NCBI GenBank assembly: GCA_965219415.1
Contig: CBDCNP010000002.1
Location: 3,776,001 to 3,840,000 of the forward strand
Source of the DNA: Candidatus Marinacidobacterales bacterium
Lineage (GTDB): Bacteria > Acidobacteriota > Vicinamibacteria > Marinacidobacterales > DATDRI01
Direction of reading: 5' to 3'
DNA: 64,000 nt
Part shown: positions 19,232-30,769 of the stretch, piece by piece
Layout of the letters: every line of letters begins with the position of its first letter
Position numbering within the stretch: the first letter of the stretch is position 1
Made by a program: the position numbers and the translations under genes
The notes under the pieces: model-generated
Seen by the model: the letters and a program-made list of their open reading frames with translations, nothing else
The model's database searches: none
What the model was told of the DNA's origin: nothing

Positions 19232-19403
19232 AACGTGGCTCGACCGGGAGAGGCAAAGCCTCTCTTCAACTTCCGACCCAATCCCCTGGCTGTCCTGACG
19301 ACGACGAGATGGCCCCTCCTCGGACCGGCGTACGTTTGGCGGAATTCGCCCCAATTTGCCGAATAGGCTATGTATTTACCGGGTTTGTGTGATAGAAACG
19401 TTC

Positions 19404-20651
19404 ATGCCACCAAGAAAAAAAGCCGCTACTCGTCCATCTCGTAAACCTAAATCCAAGACCCGGACCAAGAAAAAGAGCGTGAAGCGGAAGACCGCCAAGT
19501 CACGAAAAAAGGCCGTCAAGAAAGCGGTCAGGTCCAAGAAAAAAGCCACGGCCAAGAAAGCGGCAAAGCGCAGGAAAATCAGCACCAAGGAAGCCCGGAG
19601 AAGGACGGGCCGGAAGAAAACGAAGACGGCGAGCGGAGTACCTCAATACCTACTTTCCGTCGACGTCGAGAACATACGTTGCTTCGGACCGACGCAAACC
19701 CTCCAACTTTCTGGGGCTCGGCCAACCCCCTATGCCTGGACCGTGATCTTTGGCGACAACGGCTCTGGCAAAACGACACTCCTCCAGGCGGTCTGCGGTA
19801 TCGCATCGACGCTCCAGGACCGTAAGGAAGTGCCGTCGTTCATCCGATACAACTGGCGGCCTCAAAGACGGACCACCAAGCCGGCTCAGGTTACCGCACA
19901 AGTGCTTCTTCGTCCACGGGAGGTCGCCCCGTTTACCGTGCGTTACGCACCGGAACGACGGCGAACCAGTCCTCCGCCCCGGTGGGATTTCGACCGCGAC
20001 GGCATGCTGAGCTACTGCGGCTACGGTGCCTCTCGCCGGCACGGGCAGGCCGCGGATTCCGGCCGTAAGCCGCTGGAGTCCTCTGGGGACGAAAGCCTAT
20101 TCATCGACGACGCGGAGCTACTCAACGCCGAAGAGTGGTTCCTACAAATGAGCCACTTCGGCCCCGCCCGTCGCCAGCTCCGGGAAGCTCGCGCGGCAAA
20201 GAAAGTGCGCGACCTGCTCGCGTCCATCCTCCTCGACGTCTCCGACATCCGTATCGCTTCGCGGCAAGGCCGCGCCGCCGTCGAGTTCAAGACACATTAC
20301 GGCTGGGTACCGTTGAAGGAGCTCAGTATGGGCTACCGCACGCTGATCGCTTGGGTCGTCGATTACGCTCGCCGCCTCTACGTCTTGAATCCGCGGAGCT
20401 CGAACCCCCTCGCGGCCCCCGCCGTCGTCTGTATCGATGAAATCGATCTCCATTTGCACCAACGATGGCAACGTAACCTGATGACGTTTTTATCGGAGAC
20501 CTTTCCGAAGACACAATTCATTTGCACGGCACACAATCGTGCCGTGGCCCAGGCCGTTCCCCGCGACGCCAACCTCGTTCTGTTGCGGCGCAAGGGAGAC
20601 CACGTCGAGATTCATAACCATGCCGCGGAGCTCCTGGAGGGCGTGCGTTGA
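19404..20651 (+). CDS. ABC-type ATPase (AAA_21/PtuA-like) with N-terminal Lys/Arg-rich histone-H1-like tail
   Basis: About 75 aa basic tail, VENIRCF, Walker A GDNGSGKT, YGASR, LSMG, Walker B IDEIDLHLH, QFICTAH. Confidence 0.88.
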   Translation: MPPRKKAATRPSRKPKSKTRTKKKSVKRKTAKSRKKAVKKAVRSKKKATAKKAAKRRKISTKEARRRTGRKKTKTASGVPQYLLSVDVENIRCFGPTQTLQLSGARPTPYAWTVIFGDNGSGKTTLLQAVCGIASTLQDRKEVPSFIRYNWRPQRRTTKPAQVTAQVLLRPREVAPFTVRYAPERRRTSPPPRWDFDRDGMLSYCGYGASRRHGQAADSGRKPLESSGDESLFIDDAELLNAEEWFLQMSHFGPARRQLREARAAKKVRDLLASILLDVSDIRIASRQGRAAVEFKTHYGWVPLKELSMGYRTLIAWVVDYARRLYVLNPRSSNPLAAPAVVCIDEIDLHLHQRWQRNLMTFLSETFPKTQFICTAHNRAVAQAVPRDANLVLLRRKGDHVEIHNHAAELLEGVR

Positions 20652-20815
20652 TTGGACTCGACGTCGAAGACGACTAGCCTGAACAATAGTTAGACAGCCC
20701 TCCCACCTAGGCCTCGGGTCGCAAGAACGGCACGATGCCTCTGCGCCGAACTGCAACTATCATCCCACCGGACGTCACGAGAAGAAGGGCACGTTTGCCG
20801 GATCGGCAAAGAGCC

Positions 20816-21132
20816 CGTCCTGTGCCAAAACTCGGCCCTTTTGAAAGACCATGGCTGTAATTTAATGCACCGTAAAGTCTTAGCGTCATTTTACCAACAC
20901 TTAATGGCGGAAGCACCCATGAGGTCTGTGTGAGCAGCAGGGCTGCCCGATCGAACAACGGCTGCCTGACCAACAGTAGGATTTGCACATGGTACGTCAT
21001 GATGGATCCGAAGATAACACCCTCGGGCCAGACGATTGTAAAGCCCACAGCCCTTGGCACCGTCGCAAAACACAGACGCTAAGCTGCTGATTTATCGGCT
21101 ATTTCAAGAGGGCCGAGTTTTGGCACAGGACG
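20816..21132 (-). mobile_element. MITE-like internally deleted copy of the element at 26858-28285
   Basis: Terminal IRs CGTCCTGTGCCAAAACTCGGCCCT; retains the transposase start MMTYHVQILLLV on the minus strand. Confidence 0.85.
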
Positions 21133-21483
21133 CGGTTGGCGCTCGAGAACGATCCGCAACGCTCGAACATGGATTTCATCTTAGTGCGCCGTCGCGGCGC
21201 CCCGCCGTTGAACATCGACGGCCTGCCGATCGTGAAACTGCCATGGGGACGTATCACCGCGATCGATCTCAACGAGGGCGAAATCGTATGGCAGGTGGCG
21301 CACGGAGAGACGCCAGACAACATTCGCGAGCATCCGGCCCTACAGGGTGTGACGATCCCCCGAACCGGCCAGGTGGGACGCATCGGTACACTCGTCACGA
21401 AGACTCTCGTGATCGCCGGCGATTGCACGCTATTCACGACACCATCCGGTGAGGAGGGTGCCATGCTGCGCGCCTACGATAAG
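21133..21483 (+). pseudogene. C-terminal fragment of a PQQ-dependent (quinoprotein glucose) dehydrogenase
   Basis: GLPIVKLPWGRITAIDLNEGEIVWQVAHG...LVTKTLVIAG...MLRAYDK; starts at the element end. Confidence 0.8.
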
Positions 21484-21617
21484 GTGCATCTCTCCTTGTT
21501 CCTTGAAATTCAGAACTGCTCTGAGTTCGTAAACCGTCATCGGGCGAGATGCGCGCGGCACCGGCGATGGTGCCTTTCGGATCATCGCCTGTCGGGAGAA
21601 TGAGGCGGCGTCTAGCC

Positions 21618-21746
21618 CGTCGTGTCCAAAAATACAAACGAACTCTAAGACCCGCGCGCCGGTCCGGCGCCGAGTTCATCTATCATTATCGTGGAGAGCG
21701 CAACCATCAAGGGCTTGGCAACGCGTTTGTGTTTTTAGACACGACG
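21618..21746 (+). mobile_element. 129 bp MITE-like remnant of a related rve element
   Basis: IRs CGTCGTGTCCAAAAATACAAACG / CGTTTGTGTTTTTAGACACGACG around [17 protein letters not shown], which matches [13 protein letters not shown] in the 26986 transposase. Confidence 0.8.
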
Positions 21747-21846
21747 CGGCTCACGCGATAAAACGGACGAACACTATGGACCTAATTGCGAGGCGGCTAG
21801 GAGCCGGATGCGGCAAGATCCTGCCCCACGATTTCTTTGGCGTCAG

Positions 21847-22137
21847 CTACCTGGTCGACGGTTTGAGGATGTTACCTTGATTGTCCATCACGCCGATGGT
21901 GCTGTCACCGTAACGTTTCAGCGCACTTTCTATAGCCTCCTTGTTAGTTCCGGCGATGTAAACCGGTCCTCGATGTCCGCTGAGCTGGCGACCTGCATCC
22001 GGCACGGTGTCGGGTGTTTCGATCTCGATCGTGATGTCGGGCGTCTTGATGTCCGGCCCCTTACCTTGGTTGTATCCAGTGTTGTACTTGTTAGCAAGTC
22101 GATTTGCCGTGGTCTTATGAGACCGGCTTTCTGACAT
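21847..22137 (-). CDS. 96 aa hypothetical protein, possible minimal PD-(D/E)xK-like nuclease fold
   Basis: RBS AAGGAG before ATG 22137; SH...GPDIKT...IEIET motif. Confidence 0.7.
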   Translation of the reverse strand: MSESRSHKTTANRLANKYNTGYNQGKGPDIKTPDITIEIETPDTVPDAGRQLSGHRGPVYIAGTNKEAIESALKRYGDSTIGVMDNQGNILKPSTR

Positions 22138-22333
22138 TGGTATTTCTCCTTTCACTCCAGAACACGAGGCGAGTTGGGTTCTGCTAACCAAGCTTGCATT
22201 GGGCTCAAAGACACGGGATTATCTGCTAAAAGTGCAAGAGCTACGAAAGCGAGCAGCGGCTACGCGTCGAGCATTGACCTGACCGCACGGTTAGTATCAC
22301 ATTGTATCTTAGTAACTAGGTGCCTACAAGGGC

Positions 22334-22543
22334 TGGTTGAAGCCGGCGGAGTGGAGCGGAGCCGGTTTCAACCAAATCGTTTCCGGCGCCGGCAGTCGGT
22401 AACCCAACGAGCTGTGGGGTCTGAGGTAATTGAACTCTTGCCGCCACCTTTCGATCAATACCTTAGCCTCCTCGCCTGCAATGGTCCGGCCTCGCTGAGG
22501 CCAGACTCAACTAAAACACTCTCCGGAAAATCTGAGGGGTTCA
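22334..22543. mobile_element. IS3-family end remnants
   Basis: GCCAGACTCAACTAAAACACTCTCCGGAAAATCTGAGGGGTTCA resembles IS3 (IS51-group) right ends. It truncates the adjacent gene. Confidence 0.5.
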
Positions 22544-22955
22544 CCCTTTTCGTTTGTGATTTCTCCTTTGGGTTCCTCGGTGTTAGCGAATGGCCACAAT
22601 AGTACTCGTTGCCATACTTTGGGCACCGTTATACTGTTTTGCCAGTCCTTTACTTCTTCTTGAAAGCTCTCTTTAAAGTACATGTCTGAAATGCGGCTCA
22701 CCAGTGCTAGCCAACATTTGCTATCCGGATGTGTCTCTTTCCATTCGATGGCCTTTGGCGTCTTCTTCTCTATTGCGTCCACGATTGCTCTCTGCACCTC
22801 TACTCCGGGTATGCATCCTTCGTAGCTCATTTCGATACCTATTCGTGGCACTTGTGTTTGCTACTCTGTTTTGGCCCATATTGATCGTCTGATTTGGCCC
22901 ACCCGTATCGAACCGTTAGTCTTCCCGGGGCGAAGTCCCGGGAAGGAGGTGTCGG

Positions 22956-24509
22956 TTGGAAAGGGGTGCCAAAGTGCGACTGTTCGAGCAGATGAGGCGA
23001 GAGTACGAACGCGGAGTTGGAACGATTCAAGGAGTTGCAACGAAGTACGGTGTTCACCGACGAATGGTGCGACAGGCCCTGGAGAAGGCTGTGCCACGGG
23101 AGCGTAAATGTCCAGAACGGGCGTCACCGAAACTGGGTCCAGTGGTCGAGTTCATCGACGGGATTCTGGAAGGAGACAAGCGAGCCCCGCGCAAACAGCG
23201 TCACACGGCTCATCGAATCTGGAGTCGTGTGATTGAGGAGTATCCGGGACATGAGATAGCGGAACCAACGATACGTCGCTACGTAGGTCGTCGGAGGCGA
23301 GAGCTGGGGTTGAAGGACGCCGAAGTGTTCGTGCCCCAGAGTTACGAGTGGGGCGGTGAAGGCCAAGTGGACTGGTACGAGGCTCACTCACGGATCGGAG
23401 GGCGAGAGCAGAAGGTCTACGTGCTGGTGGTTCGGAGCATGGCAAGCGGAGGGGCGTTGCATCGAGGGTATCCGCGTCCGACGCAGCAAGCGTTTTTCGA
23501 AGCGCACGAGAAGGCGTTCGAGTTTTTCGGCGGGGTGTTCCACCGGCTGCGTTACGACAACCTATCGCTGGCGGTGAGGAAGATCCTTCGGGGTCACCAA
23601 CGTGAGCAAACAGAACGGTTCATCATGTTTCGCTCGCATTGGAGTTTTGAGTCGGAATTTTGCAATCCGAGCCGTGGAAACGAGAAAGGCGGTGTGGAAA
23701 GCGAGGTCGGCTACTTCCGCCGCAATCACTGGACGCCGGTCCCTGAGTTCACGGATTGGGAAGAGCTGAACGACTACCTGCTGACGTGTTGCCGCAAGGA
23801 GGAGAAACGTCACATCTCCGGCAAAGCACATACGGTTGGTGTTGGGATGGAGTACGAACGCGAGCACCTGTTGCCACTGGCGACGCAGGGTTTCGAGCTC
23901 GAAGAAAGACGAATCGGTCTGGTGGATAAGAAGGGTTGCGTCCGTGCGGGCACGAACTGGTACTCGACGCCGCTCAAGCGCGGCCAACGTGCGGTGGCCA
24001 AGCTGATGCCGCTTGAAGTTGAGGTCTGGCACGAGGGACGCCGGGTGGCGCGTCACGAACGCTGCTACGACCGCATGAAACAAGTACTAGATCTTGAACA
24101 CTACTTGGACGTCCTCGAGCGCAAACCCGGAGCCTTAGCCGGGTCGACGCCTCTGGCGCAGTGGCGCGAGCAAGGACGGTGGCCAGCGAGCTACGATGAA
24201 GTGTGGAAGCGATTGAATCGTCGTCACGGCAAGCAAGAAGGCACGCGTCAGATGATCGAACTCGTGCAGCTTGGACGCCGACACGGTTACGACCAGCTAA
24301 GAGATACGTTGCGTGTGGCGCTTGAGATCGGCTGTATCGATGCAGACGCGATTCGGCACCTTGTCGAGTCTCCATCGCTTTCGCGCGCGGCATCGTCAGA
24401 GCTAGTCCAATCTCAACTCGGTGAGCTGGCGCGCTACGAACGTCCTCTACCTCACGTGGGTCACTACGACCGACTCGTGGATGAGCAGGCACACGAGGTA
24501 AGTCGATGA
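22956..24509 (+). CDS. istA: IS21 transposase IstA
   Basis: [30 protein letters not shown]. Confidence 0.95.
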
Positions 24510-25277
24510 GACAACCCGTCGAGATTCAGACGATCCAGCAGCATTGCAAGACGCTTCGGATGCCAACGGTGTCAGCTCAGTTCCACAAGCTCGCAGAACA
24601 AGCTAGCCGCGAAAAACAAACCCACGTGGGTTATCTGGAGGTTCTGCTCAGCTCTGAAGTCGAAGAGCGAGAACACCGAACGGTTCAGAGACGGCTGAAG
24701 GAAGCACAGCTGCCGAGAGCGAAGACGCTCGACGAGTTCGACTTCTCGCTGTCACCGAAGCTGTCCGCTCAGCGAATCCGCCAACTCACTGAGGGTAGAT
24801 ACCTCGAGCGGGCAGAGCCGGTGATTTTTTCTCGGCGATGCCGGCACTGGCAAAACCCATCTCGCCACCGCGCTGTGTGTAGAGGCCTGCCAGCAGCGTC
24901 GTCGAGTGCGGTTCACGACCGCGTCGAGGCTCGTCAACGAACTCGTCGAGGCCAAGGAGGAGCTCCAGCTTTCTAAGGCTATTCGCAAGCACGCCCGCTT
25001 CGAACTGCTGTGCATCGACGAACTCGGCTACGTACCGCTCGCCGAGGTCGGTGCCGAACTGTTGTTTCAGGTCGTCTCCGAACGATGTGAGCGCGCCGCG
25101 ACCGTCATCACCACTAACTTGCCGTTCTCGGAATGGACGCAAGTGTTCACAAACGCCCGGCTGTGCAAAGCGCTACTGGACCGGCTCACCGACCAGGCTC
25201 ACATCCTCGAAACCGGTACCGAGTCCTATCGCTTCCGTCGCTCGCTCAAAACCCGGAAAAAGACGGCAACATCATGA
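24506..25277 (+). CDS. istB: IS21 helper ATPase IstB, frameshift in a T run near 24828
   Basis: KTLDEFDF, (FL)[32 protein letters not shown]. Confidence 0.95.
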
Positions 25278-26120
25278 CAGAACACGCTTTGCTCCGGTTT
25301 CACTCGAGGCGGCCTTCACTTAGCTCCGGCCGCAACAGAGGAAAGGGGCACTTATTACTTCTCTTCGTGTGTAATCAATAACTTAGGGTGGGCCAAATGA
25401 AATGATCAAAGTGGGCCAGACCGGGTGGACAAAAACAGGCACTAGCCCTCGTTCTGACTGCGTCTGATGCTGAACCTGCACTAGACCTAGTCGTACTCCA
25501 CACTCCAGGTCTATAAACGGCTTCTCGTAAATCGGCTGACCTGGTTCAGCGTACCGTGCAAGCGCTCTTCTTGCCTGGCGGACCAAAACCCGTTTCGACG
25601 GTGCCTCTTGAAGATTGTATTCGACGACGATGTGGCATCTGCCGTAGCTGGTATGAAATGGTATTCCTTTTCCTTCTAACATTCCCTCTAAGATTTGATG
25701 AACCCTCTTTTCTAGTGTGTCCGTTGATGTCGTGCCATCCGGTCCAAGTGTCTTGAGTGCTGTTACTTCTACTGCTAGGTCTTTCCCTACTCTGAAGTCG
25801 GGGAAGTGGTTTCGGTCTCGCTGCACATCCTCATAGTGTTTGCGGAGCCAGTTCTCAACCCGTGTTTCGCACCATTCTGATTCTGTGCCCATCTTTCTTG
25901 TTGCTGTCTCTCTGCACGGCTTTCATGTTGCCGGTAGCCGCCGTTCCTTGAGTTTGATGAACAGTTGCGCCTAGTTCCCGGCTCAGAGGGCTAGGTAGAT
26001 TCCGAGTAGGGATATATCATGTCTCCATGACCAGATTCCGGGTTTCGGTTACGGTCCTGTGTATGATCACGCACTAGGAATGCCGCCCGAAGGCGTCACC
26101 ACCAGCCGCACCTTGGGGTC

Positions 26121-26789
26121 GTGGTGAAAAGCTGGTGGGATCTGGGCGATTGGAGCGGGTATCGCGGCAACGAGCTTGCTCTTCACGAGGTTAACTGCCC
26201 CTTCTGCCACGAACGCGGAAACTTCTCTTTCGCCCACCGCGCCGACAAGAAAAAGCCCAACGCATCGAGGGTCTTGCACTTCGACACTCTCAAGTGTGGA
26301 ACCTGCGCGGGATACGTGATGGTGCTTTGGTCCACGAACAATTTCGGTGGAATGCACGACTTTCGTGTTCTGCCTTGGCCGCTTCGCCGCCAAAAGGCCC
26401 CGGAACACTGGCCCGACTCGGTAGGCCGATTCTGGCTCCAAGCTCATCGAAGCTACGCGGACGAGAACTGGGATGCTGCGGCTGTCATGGCCCGGAGTGC
26501 TGTTCAAGCGGCGCTGAGAGCACACGATGCCCAAGGCCGGAACCTCAAGGAGGAGATCGATGATTTAGCTGAACGTGGACTCCTGCCCCCTCACATGAAA
26601 GACTGGGCACACGAGTTACGAGAACTCGGCAACGAGTCCGCTCATCCAATCGCCGAAGGGAACAAGCCATCACGAGGTGATGTACAGGATATTATTGAAT
26701 TCCTGGATTTCTTGTTCCAATATCTCTACAACCTTCCGCACGAAATCAGGCAGTATCGCAAACGGCGTGCTAACGAGACTACTAACTAA
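26121..26789 (+). CDS. DUF4145 (HEPN-like) domain protein with N-terminal zinc ribbon
   Basis: CPFC...CGTC; AAAVMARSAVQ...NLKEEID...AHELRELGNESAH (RxxxNxxAH). Confidence 0.85.
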   Translation: MVKSWWDLGDWSGYRGNELALHEVNCPFCHERGNFSFAHRADKKKPNASRVLHFDTLKCGTCAGYVMVLWSTNNFGGMHDFRVLPWPLRRQKAPEHWPDSVGRFWLQAHRSYADENWDAAAVMARSAVQAALRAHDAQGRNLKEEIDDLAERGLLPPHMKDWAHELRELGNESAHPIAEGNKPSRGDVQDIIEFLDFLFQYLYNLPHEIRQYRKRRANETTN

Positions 26790-26801
26790 CGTGGTCTTGC
26801 C

Positions 26802-26825
26802 CGTCGTGTCCAAAAACACAAACGC
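26802..26825 (+). repeat. Solo terminal repeat of the CGTCGTGTCCAAAA element type
   Basis: CGTCGTGTCCAAAAACACAAACG matches the ends at 21618 and 21746. Confidence 0.8.
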
Positions 26826-26857
26826 TGTGCCTTCTATTTCATTCATCCGCGGGCACC

Positions 26858-28285
26858 CGTCCTGTGCCAAAATTCGGCCCTTTTGAAATAGGCCATAAAT
26901 CAGCAGCTTAGTGTCTGTGTTTGCGCCGGGGCCAAGGGCCGTAGGCTTTACAATCGTCTAGCCCGAGGGTGTTATCTTCAGCTCCATGATGACGTACCAC
27001 GTGCAATTCCTACTGCTCGTTCTAGCTGGCTGGGTCAACCGCCAGCAGCAGGATGTGATCGACTACCAGCAAGAGGAGAACCGTGTGCTCCGAGCCGGGC
27101 TTCGGGGCAAGCGTCTCAGTCTCTCGGACGACGACCGGCGCAGGCTCGCCGTCAAGGCCCAGGCTTTGGGCCGCGAGGCGCTGGCCCAGATTGCGTCCGT
27201 TGCCACACCCGCTACGCTTGTGCGCTGGTACCGCCACCTCATCGCAGCCAAGTACGATGGCAGCAAGAACCGGAGCCCAGGCCGACCTCCGACGGCGAAG
27301 GACATCCGTGAGCTCATTGTGCGCGTGGCGCGGGAGAACCCGACGTGGGGATATACGCGCCTGCGAGGCGCACTCAAGAACCTCGGACATGAACTCGGAC
27401 GCAACACCATCAAGAGGCTCCTCGCCGAGCACGGTATCGCTCCTGCGCCGGAGCGGGGCAGGAGCATGTCGTGGAGCACCTTCATCAAGGCTCATTGGGG
27501 TGCCATCGCTGCGACAGACCTGTTCCCCGTCGAGGTGGTGAACCCGTTCGGGCTCGTCCGCTACCATGTCCTGTTTGTCATCGATATCGCCACTCGCTGC
27601 GTGTGCATCGGTGGGATAACGTCGGACCCCAACGGGGAGTGGATGAAGCAGGTGGCAAGAAACCTCACGGACATGTGGGATGGTTTCCTCCTTGGCAAGC
27701 GATACCTCATCCACGACCGGGACCCGCTATTCACCGAGGCGGTACGTGGGCTGTTGAGAGATTCAGGCGTGAAGCCCCTTCGCCTTCCCGCTAATAGTCC
27801 GAATCTGAACGCATATGCGGAAAGATTCGTTCTCTCCATACGTGGAGAGTGTCTCGACCGCTTCGTACCTCTCAGTGAGCGACACCTGCGCACAGCGGTA
27901 AGCGAATACGTCGTGCACTATCACACAGAACGGAACCACCAAGGTCTCGGCAACGAGCTCCTCACACCTCTGCCGGCAAGCGCGAATGACGCTGGCCCCA
28001 TCGTGTCGCGAGAGCGACTTGGGGGCATTCTCAACTACTACTGCCGTGCCGCGTAGATTGTCGCCGGCGACGGTAGCCACTCGGCGGGCTCGACAGGCGT
28101 AGCGTGGAAACCGCTTCAGGAACACGCTTCGATATTCGCTCTCGACTAGGAGGTCATCTGCATGGTGACGACCCGCCTGCCCAAGACGATTGTAAAGCCC
28201 ATGGCCCTTGGCCCGGTCGCAAACACAGACACTAAGTTGCTGATTTATGGCCTATTTCAAAAGGGCCGAGTTTTGGCACAGGACG
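26858..28285 (+). mobile_element. Single-ORF DDE (rve; IS481/IS3-like) element with ~102 bp terminal IRs
   Basis: IR-L 26858-26959 and IR-R 28184-28285 differ at about 6 positions by eye; they enclose the transposase. Confidence 0.9.
26986..28056 (+). CDS. Integrase-core (rve) DDE transposase
   Basis: [47 protein letters not shown]. Confidence 0.92.
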
Positions 28286-28486
28286 GGGAACAACGCGTTC
28301 TTTCTGAATCACGTTATTGCGTCGGTGGCCCGGCAGCGACAGAGTGCAGAACCTCCACCGAGGCGAACACGAGTTCGCAGGACCTCAACTCCCATGGCTG
28401 TCTGCCCGTCAATACGCGATCTTCTTTTTTGCGGATCACACCTTGGCCTAGCACTAGAAACGCGCGTTTGATAAGCTCGCAACACT

Positions 28487-29105
28487 TTGACGGAGAGACG
28501 AACCGACACACTGATCGTCCTGATGCTGCTAGCATCCGGAGGGGCTTGCAGCGACTTACGGAGAGAGCGCGCTGTTTCCCTTCTCGCTCCTTCTCAGCCT
28601 TCCAGGGAAGTGGAGTTGGAAGGAAAGTCCCGAACAGCGTTGGACGGCTCAAGGTGGGTGTCCCCGCTAAAGGTACCGCCGAACGCAGTGCTCCAGTTCT
28701 CGATGGCTGTATTAGGCACACCCAGTGCCGGTCTGCCCGAGACAGAGTTTCTGATCGAGATCGAAGTCGATGACAAGCGGAGCCGCGCGTTTCGCGAGAC
28801 CCTTGCTGCACAGGAGGGGAATCGTTGGAACGACCGCATGGTTGATCTCACTCCGTGGGAGGGGAGAGCGGTTTCGTTGATATTCACGGCGCAGCCTGTG
28901 CTGGACGCCTCGGGCGCGGTGCATCGGCAATCACTGGCTCCGGTTTGGGGCGACCCGGTTCTTGCGAACGCCCGGTTGGGGCAATCGGTCGAACTCTTCA
29001 ATGATTGGCATCGCCGACCCCGCCGGACGTACTCAGTAGGCGATACGAAATTCAGCCACGACCGCGGCTTCTATGAGACCCCTTTCGAAGTGACCCTCAC
29101 TACCG
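28487..29105 (+). pseudogene. Fused orphan fragments: sulfatase-associated N-terminal domain plus a short CotH/Fn3-associated-like piece
   Basis: Lipoprotein-like start, W.DRMVDLTPWEGRAVSLIF, VWGDPVL; then KFSHDRGFYETPFEVTLT; cut by the element end at 29106. Confidence 0.5.
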
Positions 29106-30515
29106 CCTGTGCATCGTCAAAACTGCTCCGCCCACGAAATCAAGGACTTACGCTCCGCTTGAATTCCGGGCCGAAGACGGCGAAACTCCGCCGCTATGCT
29201 CGACGTTGTTGTCTTCCTCGTCTCACTTGGCGTCCGTGCCATTCGGGTGATGTGTCGGCACCGCGCCGACCTGGTGTTGGAGAACGTTGCTTTGTGGCAG
29301 CAAGTGACGGCGCTGAAGAAAGAGCGCCCACGCCCACCGCTCGACGACACGGAACGGGCTTTCTGGGTTGCCCTTCGAGGTTCGTGGCCCGTGTGGGCGA
29401 GCCGCCTGCTCATCGTCCACGCGGACACCGTGGCCCGTTGGCATCGCGACCGATTCCGACGGTACTGGGCAAAGATCTCGCAGCGCCGCCATCCCGGTCG
29501 GCCTCGGATTGATGCCGAGATTCGCCGCCTCGTCCGCACGATGGCGCAAGACGGCTGGGGGGCGCCACGCATCCATGCTGAGCTCACCAAGCTCGGTTTC
29601 ATCATCTCCGAGAGCACGGTGTCGCGATACCTGCCGCGGCGTCCCGCGGAGCCCGACCAGCTGAAGCGATGGATGGCTTTCTTGCACAACCATAAAGACG
29701 ATATCGCCGCCATGGATCTGTTCACCGTGCCCACCGCGTCGCTCCGGCTGCTGTATGGCTTCTTCGTCATCGAGCACGGTCGTCGGCACATCGTTCACTT
29801 CAACGCCACGTTCCACCCGACGTCTGCTTGGGTTATTCAGCAACTGCGTGAGGCGTTTCCCTACGACACCGCTCCGAGACATCTCATCTTCGATCGCGAC
29901 TTCATCTTTAGCGCTGCGGTCATCGAGTTCATCAAGGCAACGGGCACAAAACCCGTTCGCACTTCGTTTCGCAGCCCATGGCAAAACGGAACCGCGGAGC
30001 GGTGGGTCGGCAGCTGCCGTCGCGAGCTCCTTGAGCACGTCGTGGTTCTCGGCGCATGTCATCTCATCCGGCTCGTGCGAGCTTACATCAGCTACTATCA
30101 CGAGGACCGTTGCCACTTGGGGCTGAACAAGGACACACCGAGCTTGAGAGCGGTCACGCACCGACCGTCTCCTACGGCGAAAGTCGTCGCACTGCCGCGA
30201 GTCGGTGGACTGCACCACCGATACGAGTGGCGAGAGGCAGCCTGAGTCAGCTTGGTCGCTCGCGTTACTCGGCTGGTCGCCGAGAAGTTCGTCCTCAGCA
30301 CCTTCCCTCGCGCGCTGACCACGCTCTCCAGCATGTGCTCAAGGGCAGTCCGGGCCTGGAGTCCAGTCCCGGACTAGTAATAATGATGGACACGGGACCA
30401 TGCCTGCATGATTTCGTCGTTTGTTCGCGCTCGGCCCTGGGCACGGCCGCAAACACAGACTCTAAGTTGCTGATTTATGGGCTATTTCAAAAGGGCTGAG
30501 TTTTGGCACAGGACG
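29106..30515 (+). mobile_element. Second rve-type element with hybrid ends
   Basis: Left end CCTGTGCATCGTCAAAACT; right end 30432-30515 nearly identical to IR-R of the 26858 element. Confidence 0.8.
29196..30245 (+). CDS. Integrase-core (rve) DDE transposase, divergent paralogue
   Basis: LENVAL, WGAPRIHAEL, AAMDLF, IFDRD, QNGTAERW, GGLHHRYEW. Confidence 0.92.
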   Translation: MLDVVVFLVSLGVRAIRVMCRHRADLVLENVALWQQVTALKKERPRPPLDDTERAFWVALRGSWPVWASRLLIVHADTVARWHRDRFRRYWAKISQRRHPGRPRIDAEIRRLVRTMAQDGWGAPRIHAELTKLGFIISESTVSRYLPRRPAEPDQLKRWMAFLHNHKDDIAAMDLFTVPTASLRLLYGFFVIEHGRRHIVHFNATFHPTSAWVIQQLREAFPYDTAPRHLIFDRDFIFSAAVIEFIKATGTKPVRTSFRSPWQNGTAERWVGSCRRELLEHVVVLGACHLIRLVRAYISYYHEDRCHLGLNKDTPSLRAVTHRPSPTAKVVALPRVGGLHHRYEWREAA

Positions 30516-30692
30516 GGAAATTGGGTCAGGGCTTCATTCGGTTTCCCGTTAACGCTAGTCGCCAAGGGGCAAGCCCAGGGCCAACTACGACGACGAAGAC
30601 GCGGGAGGTGAACAAACCATAAGCACTATTTTGTGTATCCTTTGTGTACCAAAAGCACCTCTCTTCCGAGCATTGCCGTAAGTCATTGAAAA

Positions 30693-30769
30693 TGGCGCGC
30701 CCTGGGCGATTCGAACACCCGACCTACTGATTCGTAGTCAGTCACTCTATCCAGCTGAGCTAAGGGCGC
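30693..30769 (-). tRNA. tRNA-Arg(ACG)
   Basis: GCGCCCTTAGCTCAGCTGGATAGAGTGACTGACTACGAATCAGTAGGTCGGGTGTTCGAATCGCCCAGGGCGCGCCA: cloverleaf, anticodon ACG, CCA end. Confidence 0.97.

Follow-up and report, generated by a model that had tools for sequence, protein, structure and literature searches.

Insertion sequences (ISs) of the IS3, IS481 and IS1202 kinds have inverted repeats (IRs) that begin with TGT, a three-base domain recognised for cleavage, as set out in an excerpt of a preprint (bioRxiv 10.1101/2022.12.17.520857). According to the excerpted text of another article (PMC10045372), IS481 elements leave target duplications of 2-15 bp, mostly 6 bp. Here we describe an island of 9.7 kb from a Candidatus Marinacidobacterales bacterium, several of whose elements have ends reading CGTC(C/G)TGT. 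The island lies at 20816-30515 of the window, the whole stretch of 64 kb that was analysed (positions 3776001-3840000 of contig C3 in genome G000, which has 8.05 Mb in three contigs, C1-C3). Elements with such ends are a variant of the IS481/IS3-like kind in which the TGT is sub-terminal, the target is not duplicated and the half-site used, AYCC, is asymmetric. Since the IRs of IS3, IS481 and IS1202 begin with TGT in the preprint excerpt, the sub-terminal TGT is a real departure. The island is a pile-up of at least seven separate small mobile elements and not one large transposon.

The motif CGTCSTGTS has nine matches in the window compared to 3.95 +/- 1.84 expected, and nine was reached in none of 100 shuffles of the window. 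Eight of the matches are ends that the earlier note on this DNA had picked out, and these are real; the remaining match (6311, minus strand) is unrelated. They comprise five A-type ends (20816+, 21132-, 26858+, 28285- and 30515-) and three B-type ends (21618+, 21746- and 26802+). A further "variant" end claimed at 29106 is actually the TGT terminus, at 29108, of a separate 1285-bp element, IS-C, and the two C residues before this TGT are flank rather than IS-C sequence. By a repeat finder, the CGTC(C/G)TGT sites are the tips of much longer IRs of 30-104 nt, which pair 20816-20846 with 21102-21132 (31 nt, 97%), 26856-26959 with 28184-28287 (104 nt, 94%), 21717-21746 with 26802-26831 (30 nt, 90%) and, as the outermost pair, 20814-20846 with 30485-30517 (33 nt, 97%). 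The elements and repeats of the island are as follows, miniature inverted-repeat transposable elements being abbreviated as MITEs.

20816..21132, no strand: MITE of 317 bp with two A ends and 31-nt IRs; 14 genome copies
21618..21746, no strand: MITE of 129 bp with two B ends (CGTCGTGTCC...); 8 full genome copies
22853..25437, plus strand: IS21-family element with TGT...ACA ends; IstA at 22956-24509 (Pfam and NCBIfam)
26802..26825, plus strand: solo B end (pattern and repeat finder)
26826..26857, plus strand: first 32 nt of an "E-type" repeat (TGTGCCTTCTATTT...), truncated by IS-A; 340 genome matches to the flank
26858..28285, plus strand: IS-A, an autonomous IS of 1428 bp with 104-nt IRs starting CGTCCTGTGCC; 11 full genome copies
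26986..28056, plus strand: IS-A transposase, 356 aa, with HTH_32/HTH_21 plus rve_3 domains
28286..28441, plus strand: "F-type" repeat unit of about 155 bp, ending ...GCGGATCACA and abutting the right end of IS-A; 13 copies, 84-98% identical
29108..30392, plus strand: IS-C, 1285 bp, with canonical TGT...ACA ends; 48 full genome copies
29196..30245, plus strand: IS-C transposase, 349 aa, rve_3 (Pfam)
30393..30517, minus strand: A-end part (125 bp) of a 178-bp E-A hybrid MITE; 38 complete copies elsewhere

Genome-wide, 437 A ends were counted with up to five mismatches over 31 nt (407 on C3, 29 on C2 and 1 on C1), and 235 B ends bring the sum to 672. CGTC(C/G) ahead of the TGT is conserved in 97-99% of the A ends. 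The distribution of A ends is uneven. C1, at 2.07 Mb, has a single one; on C3, about 390 are concentrated at 2.5-5.7 Mb as opposed to about 20 in the 2.5 Mb before that. For the accumulation proposed in the earlier note, "one site" is too narrow a description. Only 128 adjacent inward-facing pairs are found (57 AA, 28 BB, 23 BA and 20 AB), and 305 of the 437 A ends lie outside any simple pair. The existence of A/B hybrids, such as a 123-bp unit with eight copies, indicates that A and B ends function together.

The five bases CGTCC belong to the element, so that the mobile DNA starts at their first C, five bases outside the TGT. Flank alignments, a gene in a second genome and distant relatives agree on this boundary. 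For 329 of the 672 ends the flank also exists uninterrupted elsewhere in the genome, and the alignments to these uninterrupted paralogs stop exactly at base -1 in 275 of the 329. Among 226 distinct cases, CG comes next in the paralog in only 54, the genome-wide frequency of CG being 0.104. In genome G008, of another family, an intact gene of 666 aa for a pyrroloquinoline quinone (PQQ)-dependent dehydrogenase is 98% identical to a fragment next to the 317-bp MITE. It reads ...GATTACA directly followed by CGGTTGG, where the window has ...CACAGGACG followed by CGGTTGG. We also compared 25 loci encoding relatives of the transposase (54-85% protein identity; by record title from Myxococcota, Gammaproteobacteria, Rokubacteria, Gemmatimonadota, Verrucomicrobiota, Bryobacterales, Phycisphaerae and others). 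At 15 of these loci the IRs have CGTnn before TGT or a variant of it, often identical at both ends, as in CGTAGTGTGCC (L085), CTCGTAGTGTGCC (L093) and CGTATGGTCCC (L100); three of the 25 are ambiguous and seven have chance-level repeats only. CGTnnTGT ends are thus found even with transposases from other phyla that are only 54-65% identical. The earlier note had described CGTC(C/G) outside the TGT on both sides, and had allowed that it might be target sequence with an ordinary duplication. The flank comparison gave a negative answer to the latter: CGTC(C/G) is element sequence and no duplication is made. One MITE copy starting with CCTCC, with an "empty" paralog CCTCCTGGACGG, was considered as proof that CGTCC is target and was rejected, as the continuation on its right side is missing; an isolated junction with microhomology of 7 nt is the better interpretation.

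The base immediately 5' of each end is the last of a target half-site, (G)A-Y-C-C. CC precedes 330 of the 437 A ends and GG only 18, and ACCC, with a genome frequency of 0.36%, precedes 133. Among the 235 B ends, A is found at -4 in 137, C at -2 in 150 and C at -1 in 141. The 21 non-redundant IS-A copies from other genomes have A13 C12 C20 C15 on the left and G15 G15 G18 T18 on the right. AYCC is target rather than element because it is present in the uninterrupted references. The logo of 211 of these has A at -4 (62%), C/T at -3 (77%), C at -2 (85%), C at -1 (65%), G/C at +2 (92%) and T/C at +3 (82%), which reads (C/G)-G-A-Y-C-C before the joint and N-S-Y after it and is asymmetric about any point. 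Positions +1 to +5 weakly resemble the element tip C-G-T-C-C, with 34-55% per position. A staggered attack by both ends on one site is disfavoured because it demands flanks that read alike on both strands, against the observed 330 CC and 18 GG. A blunt attack by both ends is likewise disfavoured because the references would then continue with GGRT, and they start with GG in 10 of 226. No GGRT motif was found at a fixed distance upstream, the information content being at most 0.06 beyond -7.

The absence of a visible duplication, reported in the earlier note, holds within the window and throughout the genome. We looked for direct repeats of at least 4 nt abutting the element ends. None was found in 11 copies of IS-A, 14 of the 317-bp MITE, 35 of the 178-bp MITE, 8 of the 129-bp MITE and 48 of IS-C, that is, in 0 of 116 full copies other than IS21, and shorter matches occur at chance level. 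As a control, all six full copies of IS21 in the genome have a 6-bp duplication. Within 40 nt of the 128 pairs, the longest direct repeat has the same distribution as in shuffled pairs. The 21 IS-A copies from other assemblies have no direct repeat either, and none was seen by eye at ten distant low-copy elements with clear IR boundaries. The direct repeat of IS481 is therefore missing from IS-A (0/11, and 0/21 in other genomes) and from IS-C (0/48). For copies with both flanks in repeated DNA, we asked whether the two flanks are contiguous in a reference. They were in 0 of 48 A/B pairs, 0 of 13 copies of the 178-bp MITE and 0 of 20 copies of IS-C, and in four of four testable IS21 copies, with a 6-bp overlap. 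The first three classes equal the null obtained from mismatched left and right flanks of different copies; the flanks of a given copy resemble each other no more than do flanks taken from separate copies.

Several other approaches to empty sites were tried. Paralogous empty sites for A/B elements were sought by three methods and none was clean, the apparent matches being intact copies of the flank repeats nearby. Candidate orthologous sites in relatives were rejected, as the flanks are themselves mobile or not syntenic, and five segments of at least 1.5 kb shared between the host genome and 160 kb of genome G001 held none that was informative. Contigs of the sequencing runs, which are broken at repeats, contained no empty site or circle junction for A-type elements. 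Runs labelled sponge, sediment or brine metagenome contained a fraction of 0.06-0.24 of the sequence words and were left aside, so that we claim no habitat here. Long direct repeats of 9-35 nt around single ends gave 21 candidates, explained by tandem or nearby repeat copies. When elements were removed in silico to restore reading frames, all three frame classes turned up equally often in this GC-rich sequence. One pair of IS-C copies differs at 1 of 1285 positions, and the 178-bp MITE has two pairs of identical copies; all of these, and likewise the near-identical copies of the 317-bp MITE, lie at different loci and have no repeats. Identity among copies of the 317-bp MITE, the 178-bp MITE and IS-C can match that of IS21. 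Such near-identical, repeat-free copies are suggestive only, because gene conversion could keep them alike.

The 356-aa product of IS-A matches Pfam PF13683 (rve_3) with 37.0 bits (cut-off 26.5), and the IS-C and IS-B enzymes, at 34.4 and 40.8 bits, also belong to the rve/DDE superfamily. IS-B, at C3:5128244-5129591, has 1348 bp, two B ends and a 371-aa transposase 53% identical to that of IS-A, so that the family has autonomous members as the earlier note had proposed; the IS-C enzyme is 32% identical to IS-A's over 281 residues. The best NCBIfam match of IS-A is the IS481 model NF033577 (95.7 bits, E 3.4e-27), below the cut-off of 224, as is IS-C with 82.1 bits; the IS3 model NF033516 gives 78.3 bits for IS-A against a cut-off of 160. 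The IS630 model NF033545 matches only the N-terminal helix-turn-helix (HTH) of IS-A, at residues 56-159 (8e-13). In ten aligned sequences, three from the host genome and seven database homologs, D178, D244, D246, E279 and R280 are invariant and the residue at +7 after the E is always K or R. This would be a triad of the IS3/IS481 type, with about 35 residues from the second D to the E, in an assignment that relies on spacing and not on structure. Judged from the sequences, the CGTC(C/G)TGT ends appear to belong to single-gene ISs of about 1.2-1.4 kb whose transposase combines an IS630/Tc3-like HTH front with an IS3/IS481-like rve DDE core; they are represented here by IS-A and IS-B, with their non-coding MITEs and one cargo carrier. 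At least 7999 of 8000 scored candidates were homologs of the IS-A transposase at E<1e-5, many of 356-357 aa and about 65% identity, and the source names call them only "transposase InsO family" or "putative transposase". A sequence search of the PDB with this transposase gave no match at E up to 0.01. Nothing relevant was found among the matches listed in a full-text literature search for four end motifs, nor among those listed for ISs and MITEs of Acidobacteria or sponges.

Compared to IS481, the elements are similar in the single open reading frame (ORF) without frameshift (356 aa in 1428 bp for IS-A and 349 aa in 1285 bp for IS-C), in the total size of 1.2-1.4 kb, in the TGT motif within the IR and in the D-(66)-D-(35)-E core with K/R at +7. 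Unlike IS481, IS-A has its TGT at IR positions 6-8 instead of 1-3, as do the A and B ends in general (IS-C starts with TGT); it lacks a duplication of 4-15 bp, scores well below the model cut-off, and has 104-nt IRs and a strict AYCC half-site. The likeness to IS3 lies in the transposase core and in the "InsO family" name of the homologs. However, IS-A has one continuous ORF and not orfA and orfB joined by a -1 frameshift, its ends do not start with TG, and there is no 3-5 bp duplication. IS30 has an rve-type enzyme, defined and IR-like target sequences, very short duplications (2-3 bp) and rearrangements via joined ends, and its ends start with TGT. The target after an IS-A-type junction resembles the element's own tip in a similar though weak manner, but no NCBIfam or Pfam match of the island proteins to IS30 models was found. 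With IS630/Tc1-mariner elements IS-A shares the N-terminal paired HTH (HTH_Tnp_Tc3_2) and a possible CG that would parallel their TA duplication; its catalytic domain is rve_3 and not DDE_3, and the reading of CG as a duplication fails its tests. The small units resemble IS-derived bacterial MITEs in being short and non-coding, with IRs of a resident IS, high copy numbers and hybrids of two end kinds. They differ in lacking a target duplication, in the many unpaired ends and in an E-A hybrid shared by two transposase lineages.

Taking MITEs as non-coding multi-copy units below 400 bp with the IRs of a resident autonomous element, the units of 317, 129, 123 and 178 bp all qualify, in agreement with the MITEs named in the earlier note. 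The right 159 bp of the 317-bp MITE are an inverted copy of the IS-A left end. Its window copy is flanked by gagcc and cggtt, which form no duplication, is 100% identical to C2:63452-63768 and has one difference to each of four other copies. The 178-bp MITE has an A end on one side and, on the other, a TGT-terminal end like that of IS-C, and is thus a hybrid of ends common to two transposase lineages. IS-C occupies the position where the E-end part of the window copy should come, and the intact MITE sequence is found ahead of 30393 in many contigs of all four sequencing runs. To the left of IS-A, other genome copies of the E-type repeat continue with GAACTTGATTAG, and at C3:3946742-3948395 a distance of 1652 bp separates the E-type end from the right flank of IS-A. 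Thirteen copies of the F-type repeat begin within 3 nt of the IS-A boundary. About 670 bp with paralogs elsewhere in the genome separate the F-type repeat from IS-C.

IS21 entered the island as an independent insertion. IS21 elements are recognised by IstA and IstB, TGT ends and a duplication of 4-8 bp; the window copy scores 217.7 bits with NF033546 (cut-off 160), has IstB_IS21 in two pieces, and is flanked by the 6-bp duplication GGCACT (22847-22852 and 25438-25443). IstB is in two overlapping frames (24506-24976 and 24906-25277). Within this region, one base at 24825 is absent from the contigs of three of the four runs. The uninterrupted paralog of the target, an empty site, lies at C3:3910505-3910638, and contigs of runs X15, X18 and X1 connect 22846 directly to 25438. 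At C3:3909954-3911147 the genome has a paralog, 98% identical, of the segment formed by 22275-22852 plus 25438-26058. The other genes at and around the island are these.

19356..20651, plus strand: PtuA-like ATPase gene (Septu-type defence) at the left border; PADLOC PDLC00304 PtuA, 307 bits, and Pfam AAA_21
21133..21484, plus strand: internal piece (352 bp) of a gene for a PQQ-dependent dehydrogenase, truncated at both ends; matches positions 482-565 of the 595 in the Pfam PQQ profile
26121..26789, plus strand: DUF4145 protein gene; Pfam 3.2e-19, and a weak PD-T7-4 match (PADLOC PDLC04109, 41 bits)
30693..30769, minus strand: tRNA-Arg(ACG) gene, the right border of the pile-up

The PtuA-like gene has no partner nuclease gene downstream, and the 317-bp MITE begins 165 bp past its stop codon. 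The DUF4145 gene is either resident or cargo. Three ORFs on the minus strand near IS21 have no Pfam or PADLOC match (21847-22191 and 22507-22851, 114 aa each, and 25383-25892, 169 aa). An Rfam search found only two tRNAs.

The earlier note had suggested that 20816-30515 might be one composite transposon bounded by matching inward A ends. The outermost ends do face inward and are 97% complementary over 33 nt, but each belongs to a small element of its own: 20816 pairs with 21132 as the 317-bp unit with its 14 copies, and 30515 is the A end of the 178-bp unit with its 38 copies. In a composite transposon two IS copies move the intervening DNA as a unit, with a single duplication enclosing everything. 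The 9.7-kb unit has no second copy in the genome, nor is there any similarly linked second copy of the inner unique pieces, the inner non-repeat pieces being single-copy or having their own separate paralogs. Matching ends 10 kb apart are to be expected given 437 A ends, and the IS21 inside entered separately. We therefore regard a composite transposon as hardly credible. Almost as improbable is that the odd junctions are artefacts of a metagenome assembler switching between genomes at repeats. The contamination estimated for this assembly, and IS-A at 96-98% identity in co-occurring relatives, would allow it. However, IS21, the longest repeat here, keeps perfect duplications in six of six copies and has empty sites in four of four testable cases. 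Contigs from independent runs cross from unique DNA into A ends with 100% identity (X15 records 9 and 15; X18 records 17 and 22), and the same pattern is seen in the 21 copies from other assemblies and in distant low-copy relatives. The outer CG might also be a 2-bp palindromic target duplication, comparable to the TA of IS630/Tc1, so that the element would start with TCCTGT in a target A-Y-C-C-CG-G-G-R-T. CG is present at both ends in about 97% of A ends, the flanks of complete copies read ACCC...GGGT, and the N-terminal part of the transposase matches an IS630 model. But the references continue with CG in only 54 of 226 cases, mostly as CGT and not CGG, and the E (TGT-terminal) side of the 178-bp MITE is preceded by CG in none of 38 copies. 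This makes the idea improbable, and even if it held, the TGT would remain three bases inside the end.

More serious is the possibility that these are ordinary IS481-type insertions with short duplications, later erased by recombination and gene conversion among near-identical ends. With 672 homologous ends available, such exchange is easy to imagine. It would explain the shuffled flanks, since those of one copy behave as random pairs, and one recently acquired gene is shattered into at least four dispersed pieces. For IS1202, the preprint excerpt cites recombination for occasional missing repeats (bioRxiv 10.1101/2022.12.17.520857). On the other side, a direct repeat is kept in 0 of 116 non-IS21 copies compared to 6 of 6 for IS21, in 0 of 21 copies in other genomes and, by eye, in 0 of 10 low-copy distant elements. 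Erasure leaves the strand asymmetry of the flanks (CC 330 vs. GG 18 of 437) unexplained, and there is no GGRT at a fixed upstream distance. We consider this explanation unlikely, but it deserves to be kept in mind.

The reading of the island as a dump of independent elements, with half-site joining that leaves no duplication and differs from concerted staggered attack, is probably correct when taken as a whole. In this scheme the transposase would bind the first 30-50 bp of the IR and cleave at the outer C. Instead of the two ends attacking a single site together with a stagger, as is usual, each end would most likely be joined singly to an AYCC half-site. Transposition itself would then delete or invert DNA and leave gene fragments, among them the PQQ dehydrogenase piece beside the 317-bp MITE, and recombination between the more than 600 homologous ends, by swapping their flanks, would add to the rearrangement. 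The island would have been built by repeated insertions into a former defence-gene region beside tRNA-Arg. More tentatively, and as a possibility that we hold with some doubt, a large rve clade may cleave five bases outside the TGT and join its ends singly to an asymmetric AYCC, so that every transposition would be a rearrangement (a deletion, an inversion, or the capture or dispersal of a fragment). Such a pathway would be one not described for DDE insertion sequences.

Several points weigh against these proposals. Our genome is metagenome-assembled, with an estimated contamination of 8.45%. For the A-, B-, E- and C-type elements, the searches gave no true empty site with both flanks, whether in an ortholog or in a paralog, so the no-duplication conclusion rests on filled sites and one-sided comparisons, and the one-sided references come from repeated DNA only. 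Heavy recombination among hundreds of ends could have split original flank pairs, and copies that are "100% identical" need not be young, given that gene conversion may have acted on them. The 39 partner junctions have scattered offsets from -36 to +30. Because they share no single offset, they do not establish inversion, deletion or any other particular pathway. A model of deletion between two half-sites was rejected, with 6 cases observed vs. 5.8 expected under the null; the window IS-A, whose flanks are 1652 bp apart in the reference, fits that model. Finally, a catalogued IS relative with described ends may exist.

A search of 30 related genomes gave IS-A matches (E up to 0.001) in 13. Eight of these 13, which represent two families of the order, have full or partial copies with 91-100% identity, for the most part 96-98%. 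Of five related genomes screened for the 317-bp MITE, two have it in abundance, with about 50 and about 40 matches listed. The occurrence of copies as similar as this (96-98%) in separate families suggests that these elements spread horizontally in recent times.

The PQQ gene, 98-99% identical to the copy in G008, survives in the host genome as at least four pieces at three loci, with other pieces at C3:4900408-4900827, from C3:4900829 onward and from C3:2645388 onward. Several pieces end at A- or E-type ends after ...GTCAGCC, ...CCAACCG, ...GTGCCCC and ...CCACCT. The surrounding 4.5-kb segment, with the dehydrogenase gene and its neighbours, is 98-99% identical to G008:C1:292500-297000. In the host genome it is broken and partly duplicated (window 21133-21484; C3:4900408-4900827, 4900829-4902964 and 2645388-2648852), and it was not found in seven same-family genomes searched. 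These comparisons suggest that the segment was acquired recently and then fragmented. Within DNA that is 99% identical to G008 apart from this one difference, a gene of the metallo-beta-lactamase (MBL) fold at C3:2645873-2646111 (L133:1986-2224) has 239 bp in place of 370 bp (L135:10958-11327). By eye, the replacement consists of five pieces of 40-50 bp from the same 370 bp, reordered and reoriented, with no mobile element at the joints.

The ends also occur in other settings in the genome. At least one cargo form exists, as the earlier note had anticipated. This is a 2.5-kb element with an A end and a B end and a gene for a 553-aa large serine recombinase (Resolvase plus Recombinase domains), present in five copies (C3:3531849-3534354 [L124:802-2463], C1:1119685-1122188, C3:2978832-2981330, C3:3482286-3484784 and C3:5101020-5103525). 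The recombinase gene is intact in three of the five; conserved sequence runs past the B end in four of the five, so that the complete unit may extend further. A 1257-bp IS3-like element (ends TGAAGTGACCCC...) lies about 31-34 nt inside the IS-A IR at five places with different outer flanks, namely C3:4197173-4199861 and four other A ends, with GAAATAG joined to TGAAGTGACCCC. A 4-bp overlap indicates that it makes its own duplication, and it either targets the IS-A IR or the pair moves together. At C3:4216963, 4270755 and 5092643, a further A end directly adjoins the initial 113 bp of IS-A (...GGCCCGAGGG joined to CGTCCTGTG), which makes a head-to-tail repeat of the left end.

The island itself is an ordinary pile-up; it is the host genome, saturated with mobile elements, that is extraordinary. 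The element group is widespread but poorly described. A terminal TGT/ACA and a fixed duplication are what annotators and IS and MITE finders use for IS3-, IS481- and IS1202-like ends, and elements of a clade that follows neither rule would be given wrong boundaries or overlooked, despite thousands of transposase homologs in metagenomes. If single-end joining to AYCC is true, these elements would directly generate deletions, inversions and gene fragmentation, and this would help explain the scrambled, pseudogene-rich genomes of some host-associated bacteria.

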